From assembly GCA_965219875.1 (NCBI GenBank), contig CBDCOW010000003.1, positions 1,276,479-1,340,478 on the forward strand: a stretch of DNA of 64,000 nucleotides, given 5' to 3'. The stretch comes from Dehalococcoidia bacterium (GTDB lineage: Bacteria > Chloroflexota > Dehalococcoidia > SHYB01). The position numbers and the translations under genes were made by a program. Below are positions 5,253-52,875 of the stretch, in pieces. The notes under the pieces are model-generated. The model was given only the letters and a program-made list of their open reading frames with translations. It was not told the DNA's origin and did not search any database. Positions within the stretch are counted from its first letter, which is position 1. Every line of letters begins with the position of its first letter.

Positions 5253-6476
5253 CTAGACCGCCCCACCGGCGCGCAGCCCCGCGATCTCGCCGCCGCTGTA
5301 CCCCGCGACCTCGGCCAGCACCTCGTCGGTGTGCTCGCCGAGCCTTGGAGCGGACCGTTCGACGGCGTAGGGATGGCCTGGTAGCTGGAAGGGGAGCCCG
5401 GGAATCTTGGTCATGCCCTCGACGGGGGAGGGATGCGGGGGCTCGACGAAGAAGCCGCGCGCCTGCTCATGCTCGGACTCGGGGAGCTCCGAGGGGGCGT
5501 AGAAGATGCCGCAGGGGAAGCCATGCTCCAGCCCCAGGTCGTAGATCTCCCGCTTGGTGCGGTCCTTGGCCCAGGCGAAGAGGTACTCGTTGACCTCAGC
5601 GCCATGCTCAGAGCGCCCCTCTTGGGTGGCAAACTTGGGGTCCCGCGCCCATTCGGGGTCGCCGAGCATCCGCGTGAACGCGTGCCAATGGTTTTCGGCG
5701 ATGTGAAAGAGGACCTCGGCGTGGCCATCCTTGCAGGGGACGCAGCCGCCGTAGGGAATGTCGCGGGTGGCCCGCGTCTCGACGAAGCCGCTCTGGGCCC
5801 ACATGCCGATCGCGATGCGCGCGAGGGTGGCGTGGGCCTCCTGCTTCGACATGTCGATGTGCTGGCCCCGGCCCGACGCGGCACGGCCGAAGACGCCGAT
5901 GATCGCCGCGGAGGCCGCGGTCACGCCGCAGTAGTACTCGCCGACGTAGGCGCCGGTCTTCACCGGCTCGCGGTCGGGGAACATGCGCTGCGCCAGCCCC
6001 GGCGGCATGAGCCAGCCCTCGCCGCCGGCGTGGATCGTGTTCAGGTTGTACGCCTTCCAACCGCTGTGCGGTCCCGTCTGCCCGAACGGGGTGATCGAGA
6101 GCATGATGAGGCCGGGGTTGATCCGCTCCAGGTCGTCGTAGCCCAGCCCCATCGCCTCCAGCGACCCCGGCGGCGTGTCCTCGATGAGCAGGTCGCTCGC
6201 CTTCACAAGGCGGCGGAAGACCTCGCGCCCGGCGTCACCCTCCAGGCTCAGCGTCATGCCTCGCTTGTTCACGTTCACGTAGTGGTGGACGAGGCTCCGC
6301 TCGGCATCGGGACGGTCGCCGGGGAAGGGCCCCCGGCGGCGGGCGATATCGCCCTCGGGCGGCTCGATCTTGATCACGTCGGCGCCGACGTCGGCGAGCA
6401 GCTTGCCGCAGAACGGCCCCGCCACCAGCGAGGTGTAGTCGAGGACTCGGAGTCCGTTCAGGAAGGGAATGCTCAT
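5253..6476 (-). CDS. family III CoA-transferase (CaiB/BaiF family)
   Basis: Begins MSIPFLNGLRVLDYTSLVAGPFCGKLLADVGADVIKIEPPEGD. 407 aa. It lies 3 nt upstream of its paralog at 4024-5250. Confidence 0.85.
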   Translation of the reverse strand: MSIPFLNGLRVLDYTSLVAGPFCGKLLADVGADVIKIEPPEGDIARRRGPFPGDRPDAERSLVHHYVNVNKRGMTLSLEGDAGREVFRRLVKASDLLIEDTPPGSLEAMGLGYDDLERINPGLIMLSITPFGQTGPHSGWKAYNLNTIHAGGEGWLMPPGLAQRMFPDREPVKTGAYVGEYYCGVTAASAAIIGVFGRAASGRGQHIDMSKQEAHATLARIAIGMWAQSGFVETRATRDIPYGGCVPCKDGHAEVLFHIAENHWHAFTRMLGDPEWARDPKFATQEGRSEHGAEVNEYLFAWAKDRTKREIYDLGLEHGFPCGIFYAPSELPESEHEQARGFFVEPPHPSPVEGMTKIPGLPFQLPGHPYAVERSAPRLGEHTDEVLAEVAGYSGGEIAGLRAGGAV

Positions 6477-7038
6477 CGTTGGGGTTCGGAAGCGCCGCGG
6501 AGCGATGATAGCACGCGGCCTCTTACCCCGCGGGTGGGTTATCCCGCCGCCTGACCGAAGGTCCGGCGCTGTCGTCTGAAGGAAGGGGGCGCGGAGGGCG
6601 CACCGGAGTCAAGGGGGTAACCATCTTAAGAGTCACGGGGCTGGGCAGCTACGGATGGGGAGCATGGCCGCGCCACGAGGCGCCCATGCGGGCTCGACTA
6701 AAGGTTACCGCGCCGAGCTAACTTCCCATACGTCACGTTGCAGCTCCGGCATGTCCGGCGATCTCATCTCGCGTTCGTTTGGGGCGCCCGCTTCAAGGCC
6801 GGGCCTCGGCCTCGCTTGAAGCTCCTCGCGCTTGGGAGGAGCGCAGGAGCTCCCGGAGGGAGGGCGCCCCTCCGCGCCACGTGGCGCCGCTCTTCCCTCT
6901 GAGCCCGCGCCGGTGGCTGAGTACGCCTAAGACATGCAAGGACATGGTAGGGCGCGGGGGCGGGGATGGGGAAGGGGCGGATGTCGCGGGGGGCTTTGGT
7001 TGGTCGAGGGTGGCGGCGTCGGTTAGGCTAGTCAAGGA

Positions 7039-10494: not shown

Positions 10495-10565
10495 AAGGGG
10501 ACGGGCGCCCACTAGGGGCGCCCCTACGGGAAAGGGCTAGATTCCCGCTTTCGCGGGAATGACAG
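10495..10565. repeat. REP-like double-hairpin unit (GGGCGCCCACTAGGGGCGCCCCTACGGG … TTCCCGCTTTCGCGGGAA)
   Basis: Two hairpins. The same unit occurs as a tandem pair at 19309-19459 and as partial copies at 48625 and 48855. Confidence 0.7.
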
Positions 10566-19204: not shown

Positions 19205-19308
19205 GTCCACCCTCCCGGCGCCGACTAGACGGGCGCCTCGCAGCGCCATTATAGGCGCGCCATTCCCTCGCCCGTCGGAGACCTGTGCAAACGTTAGAGG
19301 GAGCGGGC

Positions 19309-19459
19309 GCCCACAAGGGGCGCCCCTACGGGGAGGGATGGATTCCCCGCGTTCGCGGGAATGACGGGTAGGGACAGGAGGGAGCGGGTGCCCCCAGGGA
19401 GCGCCCCTACGGGAGGGATGGATTCCCGGTTTCGCGGGAATGACGGGTCGACGCGGCGC
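19309..19459. repeat. tandem pair of ~75-bp REP-like double-hairpin units
   Basis: GGGAGCGGGCGCCCACAAGGGGCGCCCCTACGGGGAGGGATGGATTCCCCGCGTTCGCGGGAATGACGGGTA is repeated twice with minor variation. Confidence 0.75.
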
Positions 19460-26345: not shown

Positions 26346-26510
26346 GGAGACCTTTTCGTAACCGGGGTGACTGACCGCGAGGGTGGCGGGCTTCGATATC
26401 CCGTGGCGGTTGCGAGGGGCCCCTCATCTCAATCTTCTCCCGTGGGGAGAAGAGGCAAGACCTCCCGGCCCCACCCATGCTTGCCCGCAGGCGGGTTGCG
26501 CAAAGGTCTC
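26346..26510. mobile_element. MITE-like element, copy 1 (TIR GGAGACCTTTTCGTAACC / GGTTGCGCAAAGGTCTC)
   Basis: About 165 bp bounded by imperfect terminal inverted repeats. An internal hairpin CTTCTCCCGTGGGGAGAAG is present. Near-identical copies lie at 33672-33837 and 41945-42109, with a partial at 48697-48757. Confidence 0.6.
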
Positions 26511-33671: not shown

Positions 33672-33837
33672 GGGGCCTTTGCGTAACCGGGGCTGACTGG
33701 CGCGAGGGTGGCAGGCTTCGATGGCCCATTGGTGGTTGCGAGGGTGCCCCTCATCTCAATCTTCTCCCGTGGGGAGAAGAGGCAAGACCTCCCGGCCCCA
33801 CCCATGCTTGCCCGCGGGCGGTTGTGCAAAGGTCTCC
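33672..33837. mobile_element. MITE-like element, copy 2
   Basis: Same internal sequence and TIRs as 26346-26510. Confidence 0.6.
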
Positions 33838-40136: not shown

Positions 40137-40332
40137 CACCGCACAAGAGGCCGCCCGTCCCACTATTCCCGCGAGAAGCGGGGCTCTAGCCCTTATTTGG
40201 GCATGGCACTCGAACCTGCCAGTCACCGCAAGTAGTAGTTGCGCAGAGGTCTCCGTAGAGAGCGCGGATGGCGTTCAGTAGGCGACAGGGCAGCTCGCGC
40301 TCCTTGGCCGTGGTGGGGATTGCTCTGGTACG

Positions 40333-41847: not shown

Positions 41848-41944
41848 GGATCGAAGCCTCCGGGGCCGGCGCGACGGCGTTGCGCCAACTCTAGGGGAGC
41901 GGCGCGGCGGGCGTCAAACGGCCCTCTCTCAGTCTCCCCCAGAA

Positions 41945-42109
41945 GAGACCTTTGCGTAACCGGGGTGACTGACCGCGAAGGTGGCGGACTTCGATAACCC
42001 GTGGCGGTTGCGAGGGTGCCCCTCATCTCAATCTTCTCCAGTGGGGAGAAGAGGCAAGACCTCCCGGCCCCACCCATGCTTGCCCGCGGGCGGTTGTGCA
42101 AAGGTCTCC
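41945..42109. mobile_element. MITE-like element, copy 3
   Basis: TIR AGAGACCTTTGCGTAACC … GGTTGTGCAAAGGTCTCC. It is flanked by CTCTCCCCCAGA/GGGGGAGAG palindromes. Confidence 0.6.
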
Positions 42110-42171
42110 AGAGGGGGAGAGGTTTATGGTGTGATTGACGGGGCGGCGGCGGGGGCTTCAGAATACCTGCC

Positions 42172-42988: not shown

Positions 42989-43064
<76 letters not shown>

Positions 43065-43082: not shown

Positions 43083-44240
43083 GTGCGTCGTAAGCAGCGT
43101 CTGGCATTTGTTGTCACCGCGGCGGGCGTGCTCAGCCTGGTGCTGAGCGCTTGCGCTTCGGGCGGCGGGGTCGAGGGGCTGGAGTCGACGGTGGACGCGC
43201 GCGTCGCCACGGCGCTGGCGTCGCAGCCGACGGCGACGTCGCAGCCTATGCCGCCACCCCAGCCGACGGTCACGCCACAGCCGACATCGACGCCACAGCC
43301 CGCAGCCACGCCGCAACCGACGCCGACGCCACAGCCGACATCGACGCCACAGCCGCTCGCCGTGGTCGGAAGCGACGGTGACGTGGTCGTCTTTCCGACG
43401 CCGTTGCCCACCGCGACGCCGGTGATCGTGCCGCCCCCGCCGCCGCCGGCGACGCCGCAGCCGACCGCCACGCCGCAACCGACGGCGACACCCGCGCCGA
43501 CCGTGACACCGCAGACCATCCCCAGCCCTGGAGCGGCGCCGCCAACGGTGCGCCCGACGGCCACCCCACGGCCCACGCCCACGCCGACAGCAACCGCCGC
43601 GCCGCCAGCCCTTGGCGACATCCTGGAGAGTGTCACGCGGGCGACGGTACTCATCGAGACCCTTGAGAAGGCCGGGTCGGGGTTCTTCATCTCAGACGAC
43701 ATCATCCTGTCCAACGCCCACATCTTCGACCAAGACGACGTGGGTTCCCCGTTCGTGCTCCGGAATAAATTCAACGAGAAGATCGAAACGGTGCTCGTCT
43801 ACCGGGGCGTGCTGGTCGACGTGGCCGTGCTGGAGCGCGTGTCGCTGGGCCAAGTCGCGGGGCCGGAAACGACGACGATTCCGAGAGGCGCGCCGGCGCG
43901 CCTCGGGGACCGGGTTTTCGTCGTCGGCTTTCCAACGAGGTCGCTGCAGGCCGCCGCGCCAACGATCGTCATCACTGCGGGCATCGTGTCGGCCACGCCG
44001 TTCCTGCAAGGGCTCAAGTTCTCCAACGAGGAGCCCAGGCCGATGAGGTGGGTGCAGACCGACACGCCGTTCAACTCCGGCAACAGCGGGGGGCCGTTGG
44101 TCAACGAACAGGGTGAAGTCGTCGGCATCGTGACTTGGAAGTTCGTCGGCGCCACGATCGACGGGCTGAACATGGCGCTGCCCATCGACACCGCGCTCTC
44201 GGTGATCCCCAAGTCAATCTACGACCACGACGCGGAGTAG
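43083..44240 (+). CDS. secreted trypsin-like serine protease lipoprotein (S1 family) with Pro/Thr-rich linker
   Basis: GTG start. A lipobox (LSAC), a QPT/PQP repeat linker, and the catalytic motif GNSGGPLV are present. Confidence 0.75.
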   Translation: MRRKQRLAFVVTAAGVLSLVLSACASGGGVEGLESTVDARVATALASQPTATSQPMPPPQPTVTPQPTSTPQPAATPQPTPTPQPTSTPQPLAVVGSDGDVVVFPTPLPTATPVIVPPPPPPATPQPTATPQPTATPAPTVTPQTIPSPGAAPPTVRPTATPRPTPTPTATAAPPALGDILESVTRATVLIETLEKAGSGFFISDDIILSNAHIFDQDDVGSPFVLRNKFNEKIETVLVYRGVLVDVAVLERVSLGQVAGPETTTIPRGAPARLGDRVFVVGFPTRSLQAAAPTIVITAGIVSATPFLQGLKFSNEEPRPMRWVQTDTPFNSGNSGGPLVNEQGEVVGIVTWKFVGATIDGLNMALPIDTALSVIPKSIYDHDAE

Positions 44241-47434: not shown

Positions 47435-47607
47435 CAGTTGAGGGCGTAGAGGCCGGCGGCGTTGCCCGCGAGCATCGCGTGTTTCACGTCGGCGGGCACG
47501 CCCGGGAACTGCTCCTCGATGATCCGCTGCGAGTTGGGCCACGTGGTGTCGCTGTGCGGGTAGTCGGACGACCACATCTGGTTCTCCGTCCCGATGCGGT
47601 AGTCCAT
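47435..47607 (-). pseudogene. C-terminal remnant of an amidohydrolase-2 family gene
   Basis: It encodes MDYRIGTENQMWSSDYPHSDTTWPNSQRIIEEQFPGVPADVKHAMLAGNAAGLYALN, which aligns to the C-terminus of the intact amidohydrolase at 60774-61874 (…NAMWSSDYPHSDTLWP…KHALLKGNAIREYGL). The upstream part is replaced by REP/MITE repeats. Confidence 0.5.
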
Positions 47608-48876
47608 GGCAAACGCCTCCTTGGGAGCGGGTCGTCCCGTCCCCGTGAGTGTACGGAAGGGGTCCGCTTCAGTCTACAGAGGTTCGGCCGGCCTTCCCCG
47701 TCCCGGCCCTCTCTCAGTCTCTCCCAGGGGGAGACCTTTGCGTAACCTGAGCCTAACCGCACGAGGCGCTCAGGGGGGAGGGAGCGGGCGATTCGCGAAT
47801 CGCCCCTACGGGAGGGGATAGGGCGAGCGGAGTTGGCAGCCCTTGCGTCCGTTCGGCGGCGCTCGGAACCCGTGGTCTCCGTTCGTTGCGTCCGCGCCTC
47901 ACCACGCAACGCGCCTTGGGGCGCGCCTCGGCTCAGGCCCGCCCCGGAGGGGACGGACGAGCGGGGCTCGACCGTTGGCGCGGCTGACCGTCCTCGCGCT
48001 TTCGCGCCGCGTCTGCCGTGCAAGACCGCGGAGTCCGGCGACCTTCGCCGGGTTGGTGGCCCTTCGCCTCTCTCCTTAGGAGAAGGCTGCCTTGGCTAGG
48101 CTGTTGGTTCTCGGTGCGGCGTTCTTTGATTTGTACGGCCTTGGGGGGGCCGGGCCACGCGGGGCGGTCGTTGCGCGCGCCGTCTGTTATGACGGAGCGG
48201 ACGGTCCGGTCCACCACGCTGGGTGAAGCGAGGCCGGCGGTTCGCGCACCCCGCGGGCAAGGCGGGGATAGGTCCCCCGGGCCGCGGTAAGGCGGCGCGG
48301 GGTCTTTGCCGTCCGCAGCGGTTACGGAGGCAGGTCGTCGCCGCGTGGCCGGCGAGAGGCAGGACGACCCTCCGGGCTTATGGTCCGTTGGGAGGACGGG
48401 CCGGGATGGACTTGCCGCCACGGTGGCGGTGTCCACGGATAGCGCCGCACCGAGAAGGGGGCGTGTGTGGTCGGTTGGGGCAGGGTCCTCCTTTGGGTGA
48501 TCTGGCGGCCCGCGTTCCGCGCGTCCGCGGCTGGCGGGCCTGGGAAACATATGTTCTCCAATGATGGTAGGGGAGGGGTTTGGGGGTTGTCAAGGGCGGT
48601 GTGGCGGGCGGGGGCGGAGGGGGACGGGCGCCCACAAGGGGCGCCCCTACGGGAGGGGTGCCGGCGGGCGGCACGGGGTGGCGGGCTGCGATGGGCGTTG
48701 GTGGTTGCGAGGGGGCCCCTCATCTCAGTCTTCTCCCGTGGGGAGAAGAGGCAAGAAGGCGCCCTGCGGGCACCCGCGCGCCTAGCGGCGCGCGCCCTCT
48801 CTCAGTCTCCCCCAGAGGGAGAGAGGTTTAGGTGGGCTCCGCCAGCCGGAGGGGAGGGCACCCACAAGGGGCGCCC

Positions 48877-50034
48877 CTACGGTATCTCGGCGCCGGCGAT
48901 GAGGGTGGCGGCGGCGGCGAACATGCCGCCGGGACCGTGGGCGATGCCGAACTTGGCATTGGGAACCTGACGCTCGCCGGCCGCGCCGCGCAGCTGCCGC
49001 ACGAGCTCGATCATGGTGTACATGCCGTACATGCCGGAGTGACTGTAGGAGAGACCGCCGCCGTTGGTGTTCATGGGGAAGTCGCCGCCGGGGGCGGTGC
49101 GCCCGTTCTCGACGAAGGGGCCGCTCTCGCCTTTGCCCACGAAGCCGAGGTCTTCCAGCGCGGCCATCGGGGTGAAGGAGAAGGCGTCGTAGAGCTCGGC
49201 GACGGCGATGTCCTTGTGGGTAACCCCAGACATGTCGAAGGCGGAGCGCCCCGAGATTACCGCCGCGTCCGACGTCGTCGCGTCGCGGATGTTCGAGATG
49301 CCGTAGTGCGCCGTGGCGTGCCCCGTCCCGAGGACGTAAACCGGCGGCTTGGGCAGCGCCGTCGCCTCGTCGGCCCGGGTGAGGACGAGCGCGCCGCCGG
49401 CGTCGGTGACCAGGCAGCACATGAACAGGGTATAGGGCCAGCAGACCATGCGAGAGTTTAGAACGTCGTCGATGGTGATGTCGTCCTTCATCACGGCTTT
49501 GGGGTGCATTTGGGCCCACTTCCGGGTCGAGACCGACACTTCCGCCAGTTGTTCCAGCGTGGTGCCGTACTCGTGCATGTGGCGTGTGGCCGGCAGGGAG
49601 AACGTTGTCGGTGCGCCGAAGGTGCCGTAGGGGGCCTCGAACTGGCCTCCTGGGAGGCCGGGGGCGCCGGCAGGGGGGGCGACGCCGATGCGGGAGCGGC
49701 CGCTTTCGCCGTGGGAGATGACGGCGACGTTGATGAGGCCCGCGTCGAGGGCCAGCATGGCGTGCTCGACCATGGCGATGAAGGAGCAGCCGCCCATCTG
49801 GGTGTTGTTGTAGAGGCGGGGCGTGATCCCCAGGTACTCGCCGAGCTGGGTCATCGGGACGCCGGGGCAGAGCAGGCCGTCCACGTCGCTCAGCTTCAGG
49901 CCCGCGTCGTCGAGCGCGTTGCGAATGCCCTCGGCGTGCAGCGTGATCATAGAATGGCCGGGAAGCGTCCCCAGCCGGTCCGTCTCGCAGGCGCCGACGA
50001 TGGCGACCTTGCCGCGAAGGTCTTTGGTGGGCAT
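48877..50034 (-). CDS. SCP-x-type thiolase-fold protein (thiolase/retro-aldolase, Ltp-like)
   Basis: 385 aa beginning MPTKDLRGKVAIVGACETDRLG. A thiolase fold with a downstream DUF35 partner. Confidence 0.75.
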   Translation of the reverse strand: MPTKDLRGKVAIVGACETDRLGTLPGHSMITLHAEGIRNALDDAGLKLSDVDGLLCPGVPMTQLGEYLGITPRLYNNTQMGGCSFIAMVEHAMLALDAGLINVAVISHGESGRSRIGVAPPAGAPGLPGGQFEAPYGTFGAPTTFSLPATRHMHEYGTTLEQLAEVSVSTRKWAQMHPKAVMKDDITIDDVLNSRMVCWPYTLFMCCLVTDAGGALVLTRADEATALPKPPVYVLGTGHATAHYGISNIRDATTSDAAVISGRSAFDMSGVTHKDIAVAELYDAFSFTPMAALEDLGFVGKGESGPFVENGRTAPGGDFPMNTNGGGLSYSHSGMYGMYTMIELVRQLRGAAGERQVPNAKFGIAHGPGGMFAAAATLIAGAEIP

Positions 50035-50599: not shown

Positions 50600-50830
50600 C
50601 ATCCCGCCTCCCCCCGCCCTCACCCCAACCCTCTCCCAGCGGGAGAGGGGGCAGGACCCCCTCAGCCGCCCCAGCCCTCTCACTCGTCTCTCCCAAGGGA
50701 GACCTTTGCGTAACTCGGCGGGCGGGCTTTAGCAAGGTCGCGCGGCCCCCGCCTCCCCCCGCCCTCACCCCAACCCTCTCCCAGCGGGAGAGGGGGCAGG
50801 ACCCCGCGCCGCCCTCCCTTTCCCAAGGCC
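50600..50830. repeat. ~140-bp tandem repeat array (about 1.5 units) sharing the GAGACCTTTGCGTAAC end and CCCTCTCCCAGCGGGAGAGGG palindrome
   Basis: Direct reading of the sequence. It belongs to the same family as the array at 52205-52875. Confidence 0.7.
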
Positions 50831-51149
50831 AGCGGGCGGCGTTCTTCCCCTCGACGAAGGTTTGCAAAGGTCTTCAAGGGGAGAGAGGCTTGAGGTGCCC
50901 AGAGGGGGAGAGGCTTAGGGCGGTCGGCGTTGACCGGGCGGGGTGCGCCGACTACGGTGTAGCGGCTATGCGCGTCGATGCTGTGTCCCACGCCGCGGGC
51001 TTGGGAACCCTCTCTCAGTCTCCCCCAGAGGGGGAGAGGTCTACGGTGGCTCCCCCAGAGGGGGAGAGGTCTACGGTGGCTCCCCCAAAGGGGGAGAGGT
51101 CTGAGGCGGCCCTCTCTCAGCCTCTCCCAGGGGGAGAGAGGTTTAGGGA

Positions 51150-52205: not shown

Positions 52206-52875
52206 GGGGGCGAGACCGGTCTCAGGCTCTCCCAAGGGAGAAGCTTTGCGTAACTGGGGTGGCTGAGGCGAGGATGGCGGGCTTCAGCAAGGTCGCGCGG
52301 CCCCCGCCTCCCCCCGCCCTCACCCCAACCCTCTCCCAGCGGGAGAGGGGGCAGGCCCCCCCCAGCCGCCCCAGCCCTCTCACTCGTCTCTCCCAAGGGA
52401 GACCTTTGCGTAACTCGGCGGGCGGGCTTTAACAAGGTCGCGCGGCCCCCGCCTCCCCCCGCCCTCACTCCAACCCTCTCCCGGCGGGAGAGGGGGCAGG
52501 ACCCCCCAGCCGCCCCAGCCCTCTCACTCGTCTCTCCCAAGGAAGACCTTTGCGTAACTGGGCGGGCGGGCTTCAGCAAGGTCGGGCGGCCCCCGCCTCC
52601 CCCCGCCCTCACCCCAACCCTCTCCCAGCGGGAGAGGGGGCAGGACCCCCCAGCCACCCCCGAGCCCTCTCTCAGTCTCTACAAGGGGAGACCTCGGCGT
52701 AACTCGGCGGGCGGGCTTCAGCAAGGTCGCGCGGCCCCCGCCTCCCCCCGCCCTCACCCCAACCCTCTCCCAGCGGGAGAGGGGGCAGGCCCCCCCAGCC
52801 GCCCCAGCCCTCTCACTCGTCTCTCCCAAGGGGAGAGAGGCTTAAGGTGCCCAGAGGGGGAGAGGCTTTAGGTGG
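52205..52875. repeat. ~140-bp tandem repeat array (about 4.5 units)
   Basis: The unit is …CTCTCCCAAGGGAGACCTTTGCGTAACTCGGCGGGCGGGCTTTAACAAGGTCGCGCGGCCCCCGCCTCCCCCCGCCCTCACCCCAACCCTCTCCCAGCGGGAGAGGGGGCAGGACCCCCCAGCCGCCCCAGCCCTCTCACTCGT…, repeated head-to-tail. Confidence 0.8.

Follow-up and report, generated by a model that had tools for sequence, protein, structure and literature searches.

The unit of about 165 nt that recurs between the genes of this Dehalococcoidia bacterium is, on balance, probably a non-autonomous, non-coding mobile element of the MITE type, in which terminal inverted repeats of 17-18 nt enclose a REP-like core hairpin, and which inserts into the loops of palindromes as part of a mosaic, polar repeat system. 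Its copies are bounded by inverted arms and flanked by duplicated loops, orthologous sites in relatives are empty, its modules occur in a mosaic of combinations, and its orientation along the chromosome is polar. In the following, the window denotes the whole stretch of 64,000 nt that was analysed.

Three full copies of about 165 nt had been proposed by a sequence-only reading of this DNA, and all three were confirmed on the + strand, at 26346-26510 (copy 1, with a profile start at 26346/7), 33672-33837 (copy 2) and 41945-42109 (copy 3, with the end at 42108/9). These three copies measure 164-166 nt; the unit in general is 164-168 nt long, non-coding and intergenic, with Pfam used to check its neighbours. 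Copy 1 lies between the stop codon of a gene for an AccA/carboxyltransferase fusion (26697) and the promoter of an SDR gene, copy 2 is found upstream of a UDG gene, and copy 3 separates the divergent genes of an enoyl-CoA hydratase and a GT2 glycosyltransferase. Thus the intergenic placement beside accDA, udg and GT2 genes had been described correctly. Pairwise identity among the three copies is 89.9-93.4%, which makes the earlier figure of more than 90% roughly right. A partial copy given as 48697-48757 is real but longer than that, since it extends over 48676-48757 on the + strand. It corresponds to positions 35-116 of the full-copy profile at 86-92% identity, and consists of the core (module B) without arms. 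Immediately upstream of it are a non-coding repeat of 840 nt and a REP of the GTAG type.

The terminal inverted repeats of 17-18 nt and the internal hairpin are as the earlier reading had them: the arms are GAGACCTTTGCGTAACC and GGTTG(C/T)GCAAAGGTCTC, and the hairpin is CTTCTCC(C/A)GTGGGGAGAAG. In copy 3, the 5' arm (41945-41962, + strand, GAGACCTTTGCGTAACCG) pairs with the 3' arm (42092-42109, + strand, CGGTTGTGCAAAGGTCTC) via two G-T wobbles. The conserved heart of its core (42020-42062, + strand) is formed by the tag CCCTCATCTCAAT, a CTTCTCC/GGAGAAG hairpin with variable loop, and then AGGCAAGACC; tag, stem and AGGCAAGACC are identical in five Dehalococcoidia species. Across 20 full copies the outer stem of 18 bp is conserved: of its 360 cells, 287 are Watson-Crick pairs and 48 are G-T. 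If up to three mismatches are allowed, the arm half-site GAGACCTTTGCGTAAC occurs 12 times in the window, compared to 0.24 expected from shuffles. These sites comprise the six arms of the three copies and those at 52399, 52543, 52688, 50699, 47731 and 40238. The one at 47731 is a solo 5' arm (47731-47747, + strand) that precedes a REP and the 840-nt non-coding repeat. The one at 40238 belongs to a solo 3' arm (40238-40254, GTTGCGCAGAGGTCTCC on the + strand, with the half-site match on the - strand at 40238-40253) within a 97-nt segment at 40174-40270.

The element had been suggested to act as a mobile terminator, a promoter or a small-RNA cassette. These roles were not borne out. Neither a sigma-70-like promoter consensus nor a hairpin followed by a T-run was detected inside the unit. 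Rfam models applied to the window at gathering thresholds yielded only a tRNA, the best matches of copy 3 at E-values up to 10 were chance-level microRNA models, and nothing relevant was obtained for 47600-48900. Orientation relative to the flanking genes is unbiased over 46 intergenic sites (11 sense, 14 antisense, 12 divergent, 9 convergent). Without an Rfam match, a consensus or an orientation bias, the terminator, promoter and small-RNA ideas are thus unsupported. The positions of the promoters fit this picture. A distance of 30 nt separates copy 1 from the -35 box of the SDR gene (TTGACG, 26316) downstream of it, and the copy-3 locus comprises two back-to-back promoter-like sites, TTGACG-18-TAGAGT (41888-41917, - strand) and TTGACG-18-CAGAAT (42135-42164, + strand), both of which are conserved in all relatives. 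All repeat insertions at this locus fall exactly between the two -35 boxes, and copy 3 is therefore outside both transcription units. Consequently, copies 1 and 3 are located in spacer DNA that is not part of a transcription unit. We see no evidence that the element serves its neighbouring genes; its place is in spacer DNA close to promoters but not within them, where insertions are tolerated. A tRNA gene at 42989-43061 is situated just upstream of a 385-aa ORF (43083-44240, + strand), in which 18-nt tandem repeats (43203-43523) presumably encode a low-complexity stretch rich in Pro, Thr and Gln, judged by eye.

That the unit is the gene for a structured RNA or a cis-acting part of one, be it a small-RNA cassette, a terminator or an mRNA stabiliser, appears very unlikely to us. 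In its favour, the + strand folds well (-79.7 kcal/mol, z = -3.4), the consensus fold is better on the + than on the - strand (-58.9 versus -41.9), and wobble pairs occur in the arm stem of the + strand. However, the - strand folds almost equally well (z = -3.1), the internal helices are nearly invariant and hence provide no evidence of covariation, and the negative results on Rfam, consensus sequences, gene orientation and transcription units given above all speak against it. Mismatches of the arm stem are G-T in 48 cases and A-C in 5, an excess that hints at the + strand as the folding one, but only hints, because it stems largely from two consensus positions and from related copies. The overall ratio of G-U to A-C (124:21) was rejected as evidence for an RNA strand, as consensus wobbles, the common descent of copies and the folding algorithm itself all raise it.

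What surrounds the copies argues for mobility. The flanks of full copies follow the pattern ...CTCTCCC-NNNN-G / GAGACC...GGTCTC / C-NNNN-GGGAGAG..., which places the element within a small palindrome, the loop of which is directly repeated on both sides. The palindromes that had been noted as flanking the element are thus present, but a CTCTCCCCCAGAGGGGGAGAG-type palindrome is split by it, with half on each side. At copy 3, the left half of the split target (41922-41944, + strand) is CCCTCTCTCAGTCTCCCCCAGAA and the right half (42110-42131, + strand) is CAGAGGGGGAGAGGTTTATGGTG, with the loop CAGAG on both sides. Loops vary from site to site and match within a site, as exemplified by CCGTTGGG (L021), CCAGAGGG (L031) and CCAGCGG (L026). 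The mean longest word common to both flanks is 3.19 for pairs from the same copy versus 1.34 for mismatched pairs, a value that none of 5000 permutations reached, and no comparable signal was obtained for an inverted relation between the flanks. Five copies possess perfect direct repeats of 7-8 nt. Direct repeats resembling target-site duplications are thus found, although roughly every second full copy lacks a clean one. Their length is 4-8 nt and not fixable, because the ends of the element overlap the arms of its palindromic target. Targeting of REP palindromes has been described for insertion sequences that belong to five families (PMC1525189). Such REP-targeting elements (IS1397, ISKpn1, IS621, ISPsy8, ISPpu9; PMC1525189) resemble the present one in that they integrate specifically within a palindromic repeat, which can be restored by joining the flanks. 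They are, however, autonomous, 1-1.5 kb long and transposase-encoding, in contrast to a non-coding element of 165 nt.

Comparison with relatives revealed empty sites for two of the three copies. Loci orthologous to that of copy 3 were reached through enoyl-CoA hydratase homologues. In one of them (L042, about 95% nucleotide identity) the element is absent, an undivided palindrome CCCTCTCTCAGTCTCTCCC-ATG-GGGAGAGAG is found, and the divergent intergenic region measures 147 nt, compared to 324 nt in the window. A strain that is 98% identical (L038) carries the element in the loop at this site, with CCAGAGG on both sides. The element is also missing from L043-L045, where the small palindrome is reversed (L043, L044) or no repeat exists (L045). 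Copy 1 is present in L047 and L048 at 99.4% identity, and its intergenic region spans 447-450 nt in these loci and the window versus 159 nt in L050 and L051, which lack the element and contain a different REP. Copy 2 has orthologues in L027, L042 and L047 (88-92% identity). Taken together, the duplicated loops at the palindrome and the two empty orthologous sites support a non-autonomous mobile element. However, between the occupied and empty alleles of copy 3 the small palindrome has a different stem and tail as well, so that a swap of the whole cassette by recombination is possible. The 97-nt segment that contains the solo 3' arm is shared by the window and L042 (95%) and precisely absent from L038 (98%), with its left breakpoint in a hairpin loop, CCCGCG^AGAAGCGGG. 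As to assemblies, short-read (Logan) contigs L039-L041, which stem from the same organism, end within about 130 nt of repeat-flanking genes, and L055, likewise from this organism, is a 1.7-kb contig that ends beside DNA rich in repeats; assembly of this lineage from short reads is apparently interrupted by the repeats.

The element is not a uniform unit. A profile built from the three window copies was searched over the window and 37 related loci (360 kb) and gave 97 matches, about 22 of them full length. Partial matches break recurrently at model positions 35-38 and 111-133, and these shared breakpoints define three modules, namely the 5' arm (A), the core (B) and the 3' arm (C). Core B is also found alone, and it joins other modules to form tandem arrays (L001, L010, L026); B without arms is the part common to the other four species. 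The invariant heart of B is CCCTCATCTCAAT, a stem CTTCTCCC/GGGAGAAG with variable loop, and then AGG. Tandem amplification of units was detected in L001, L010, L026, L013 and L033 as well as at 52276-52832 of the window. In L013 (4-559), which belongs to another Dehalococcoidia species, 12 heart hairpin units follow each other with a period of 46-48 nt and without spacers; a separate tandem array in L033 (4248-4922) has a period of 150 nt.

The arms, in turn, are shared with a second subfamily. In a type-2 element at 50699-50875 (+ strand), these arms enclose a variant of the heart, CCCTCACCCCAAC-CCTCTCCC-AGC-GGGAGAGG, in which one T-A pair is replaced by C-G; the element is flanked by CAAGG on either side. 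The window array at 52276-52832 (+ strand) consists of 3.9 type-2 units of 145 nt. The sequence-only reading had the half-site cap these tandem repeats, and indeed those at 52399, 52543 and 52688 are the heads of 145-nt units. Terminal inverted repeats, duplicated loops, empty sites and the presence of the arms on two subfamilies favour an enzyme that recognises the ends.

It could also be argued that no dedicated mobilising enzyme is involved and that the units spread and disappear only via homologous recombination, gene conversion and replication slippage between related hairpin repeats. The recurrent module breakpoints at model positions 35-38 and 111-133 would fit this idea, as would the copy-3 alleles that differ in the surrounding palindrome too, the 97-nt deletion in L038 that begins in a hairpin loop, and the common tandem arrays. 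However, recombination does not readily explain the first arrival at single-copy intergenic sites, nor does it account for site-specific loops that match on both sides of one copy. We therefore regard an origin by recombination alone as unlikely.

The core of the element belongs to a larger family of hairpins. Its heart tag is CCCTC plus 6-7 nt, placed 5' of a perfect hairpin, and an abundant small palindrome shares this layout (CCCTCTCTCAG-TCTCCCCC-AGA-GGGGGAGA-GGTTTAAGG). A search of the window and of shuffled sequence for CCCTC followed by a short spacer and a perfect stem gave 19 tagged hairpins on the + and 6 on the - strand of the window, compared to 2-6 in total in shuffled sequence. 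Stems vary between subfamilies yet stay complementary (TCTTCTCCC, TCTCCCCC, TCTCTCCC, TTTCCCCC, CCCTCTCCC), and the loop varies as well. Since the layout of tag plus stem is the same, the element core is one subfamily of a wider superfamily of CCCTC-tagged hairpins. REPs are generally built in this way, with a tag in front of a hairpin (PMC6006769, PMC3733652), but the core tag CCCTCATCTCAAT, although 5' of the stem, is neither GT[AG]G nor CGTC. Classical GTAG-tagged REPs (for example the reverse complement of GGGCGCCCACAAGGGGCGCCCCTAC) adjoin copies as separate modules.

GTAG REP palindromes were located in the window at 10498-10529, 19300-19331, 19381-19412, 48621-48652 and 48851-48882, where the - strand reads GTAGGGGCGCCCCTTGTGGGCGCCC, and a second REP type, GGGCGATTCGCGAATCGCCCCTAC, at 47785-47808; both types keep a constant orientation relative to the other repeats. 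The 840-nt stretch is itself multi-copy, with copies at 47820-48658 of the window, in L008 (3624-4463) and in reverse in L034 (3718-4553), which are 88-92% identical. A GTAG REP and the element core come after every copy, and a sequence similar to the 5' arm stands in front of two of the three. We rejected this repeat as a coding gene, as its 205-aa ORF has no Pfam match, mismatches lack 3-periodicity (37/37/33) and indels are 1-2 nt long. It was likewise rejected as a structured RNA, given that it has no Rfam match and that broken pairs outnumber compensatory ones in the consensus folds of both strands. An attC-like reading of GCGTAAC/GTTGCGC was discarded too, because only 6 of 7 degenerate positions fit and the context is one of housekeeping genes.

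The polarity of the system was unexpected. Wherever a locus contains copies in at least two intergenic regions, all of them point in the same direction within that locus. In the window, all directional repeat families are on the + strand over 43 kb (9.5-52.9 kb). When three other repeat motifs were compared with the core across loci L001-L037, orientations agreed in 166 cases and disagreed in 10. Furthermore, GC3 skew tracks the strand of the element once the effect of the gene strand is removed (+0.072, bootstrap 95% interval 0.039-0.114), a value that was never reached when orientations were assigned to loci at random. A skew that is independent of genes is the usual signature of replication-strand asymmetry. 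On the complete chromosome OZ253453.1, orientation and skew switch jointly at least 11 times, and thus two simple replichores were rejected as the source of orientation. Strict co-orientation stands against our MITE reading: a DDE transposase that works on symmetric ends would not be expected to produce it, it is unlike the prediction for an ordinary DDE-mobilised MITE, and it points towards REP/BIME-like or strand-specific biology. Polarity, the tagged hairpin, mosaicism and tandem amplification together favour a REP/BIME-like biology of single strands (PMC3333891, PMC6006769).

Accordingly, a REP/BIME-type element that is moved as single-stranded DNA by an HUH enzyme (Y1, RAYT- or TIRYT-like) at the replication fork deserves consideration, and we hold it to be a possible, albeit clearly less probable, explanation. 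Such an enzyme would recognise the tagged hairpin of the core, the arms would form a REPIN-like super-hairpin, and strand-specific integration would give rise to the polarity. A conserved 5' tag in front of a perfect hairpin with variable loop and co-varying stem is indeed REP architecture (PMC6006769, PMC3733652), classical GTAG REPs adjoin the copies, and mosaic composition with tandem amplification (L001, L026, L013, L033) occurs as modelled for BIMEs (PMC3333891). The co-orientation of all families (166 versus 10), an element strand that follows the GC3 skew irrespective of gene strand, and the arm-stem excess of G-T over A-C mismatches (48 to 5) point in the same direction. Elements of the IS200/IS605 group are active on the lagging-strand template (PMC6006769), and they and their miniature derivatives share with the present element a dependence on hairpins of one strand and an orientation tied to chromosomal strand asymmetry (PMC6006769). 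However, they lack terminal inverted repeats and target duplications and insert 3' of a fixed tetra- or pentanucleotide, whereas our element has inverted arms, duplicated loops and a left flank that varies between copies. Y1 transposition leaves no target duplication, and thus the loop duplication argues against the classical HUH Y1 route. In addition, the tag is not GT[AG]G, the units are co-oriented in contrast to head-to-head REPINs, 12 of the 46 sites lie between divergent genes, unlike those of REPs, and the at least 11 switches of orientation along OZ253453.1 do not match two simple replichores. The G-T excess, as stated, derives mostly from two consensus positions and related copies. 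Finally, a search of 465 kb with two queries gave no Y1-like ORF, which is a weak negative.

Concerning the enzyme itself, RAYT-like genes with long flanking inverted repeats are known that are accompanied by dispersed copies of those repeats (PMC3733652). No transposase gene bounded by matching arms was found in 465 kb. To find a parent, arm half-sites in the window and 37 loci (360 kb) were examined for inverted pairs 0.6-3 kb apart, and two candidates were rejected. The pair in L002 brackets a gene resembling the IS30 family that has unrelated ends and is nested in a copy. Its 334-aa ORF (5493-6497), which by eye we take to be an IS30-family transposase and which is the only transposase seen, has its own unrelated inverted repeats and is inserted beside a CCCGCGAACGCGGG hairpin within an element copy. 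The pair in L035 (1313-2380), a 5'-arm-like and a 3'-arm-like sequence in inverted arrangement, encloses about 1 kb with REPs, a 58-nt tandem repeat and an 87-aa ORF that is not transposase-like; from its CxxC motifs, read by eye, this is presumably a zinc ribbon. The two arm-like sequences of L035 may belong to a composite or be two solo arms. Phmmer with two Y1/RAYT (IS200-like) queries against all ORFs of at least 70 aa in the 465 kb gave no match, which is a weak negative, and no Y1_Tnp occurred among the Pfam-annotated genes of L038-L051. The idea of a REPtron, with a gene between the repeat arrays at 51.2-52.2 kb, was dropped, since that gene is not a RAYT; the ORFs there, whose translations were read by eye, are presumably a ComB-like phosphatase and a CrcB-like channel. 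Consequently, the proposal of one non-autonomous family mobilised by a transposase encoded elsewhere stands in part. Non-coding multi-copy units bounded by terminal inverted repeats, direct repeats resembling target-site duplications, presence and absence between relatives and the arms on a second subfamily agree with it, but no parent was found in the 465 kb, and the unit is a mosaic, the core of which also occurs without arms.

A broader view would unite all intergenic hairpin repeats of the lineage in one polar system, to which CCCTC-tagged hairpins, GTAG REPs and, nested within the loops of these, the elements with inverted repeats would belong. They would be put on one DNA strand by a replication-coupled enzyme of an undescribed type that targets hairpin loops, or their polarity might be kept by selection as chromosome-orientation signals. 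In contrast to HUH Y1 transposases, such an enzyme would generate a short duplication, and in contrast to DDE transposases it would be strand-specific. We regard this as a speculative and rather unlikely scenario.

One genome per species was scanned for exact matches to the 41-nt core, in which two positions were left free. Among 185,579 species, only five Dehalococcoidia species, represented by metagenome-assembled genomes, contain it. The complete 3.58-Mb chromosome OZ253453.1, which is distinct from the window and about 95.5% identical to it where the two overlap (L027), comprises 29 exact core matches in 28 loci. Viral collections gave no match to the heart and three to the 16-nt arm, which in our judgement does not exceed chance for a 16-mer in such a large collection. 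The family is described neither in Rfam nor in the literature searched. To our knowledge, repeat elements of Chloroflexota are poorly described in general. The family is thus new, while its kind, MITE or REP/BIME-like, is familiar.

Bacterial MITEs such as Correia/NEMIS, RUP, ERIC and Nezha are likewise non-coding, intergenic and multi-copy, are 100-300 nt long, possess terminal inverted repeats of 15-30 nt, fold into a long hairpin, are flanked by short direct repeats and differ in presence between strains. In contrast to them, the element described here has no known parent IS, its body consists of modules that also live independently, it enters the loops of other repeats, and all copies share one chromosomal orientation. 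REPs, BIMEs and REPINs with their RAYT (TnpA-REP) or TIRYT genes (PMC3733652, PMC3333891, PMC3116915) are similar in having a tagged short hairpin as the conserved unit, mosaic clusters with linkers, tandem amplification and a lineage-specific content, and GTAG REPs occur alongside the element here. However, the tag is CCCTC plus spacer instead of GTAG or CGTC, the units are co-oriented and do not form the inverted pairs of REPINs, many sites lie between divergent genes, loop duplications flank the copies, and no RAYT was found in the sequence searched.

Returning to a non-autonomous MITE-type element as the reading we prefer, its life cycle might be envisioned as follows. The element would integrate into the loop of a pre-existing small palindromic repeat and thereby duplicate 5-7 nt, namely the loop and its closing pairs, and its GAGA...TCTC ends would rebuild a small hairpin on each side. 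Integration would be specific for a structure, the hairpin loop, as well as for a strand, and a trans-acting enzyme encoded elsewhere would presumably recognise the arms, the tagged hairpin or both. Within one Dehalococcoidia lineage, the modules of this BIME-like, CCCTC-tagged system would then be reshuffled, tandemly amplified and lost.

On this reading, the unusual intergenic sequence of the window would for the most part be selfish or neutral repeat DNA and not regulatory RNA. What sets the family apart is the nesting of its units in hairpin loops and their near-complete polarity. The lineage thus represents a compact case in which hairpins are nested within hairpins and several repeat families share a nearly complete chromosomal polarity, and, if the enzyme is found, this polarity could separate strand-specific from strand-blind mobilisation.
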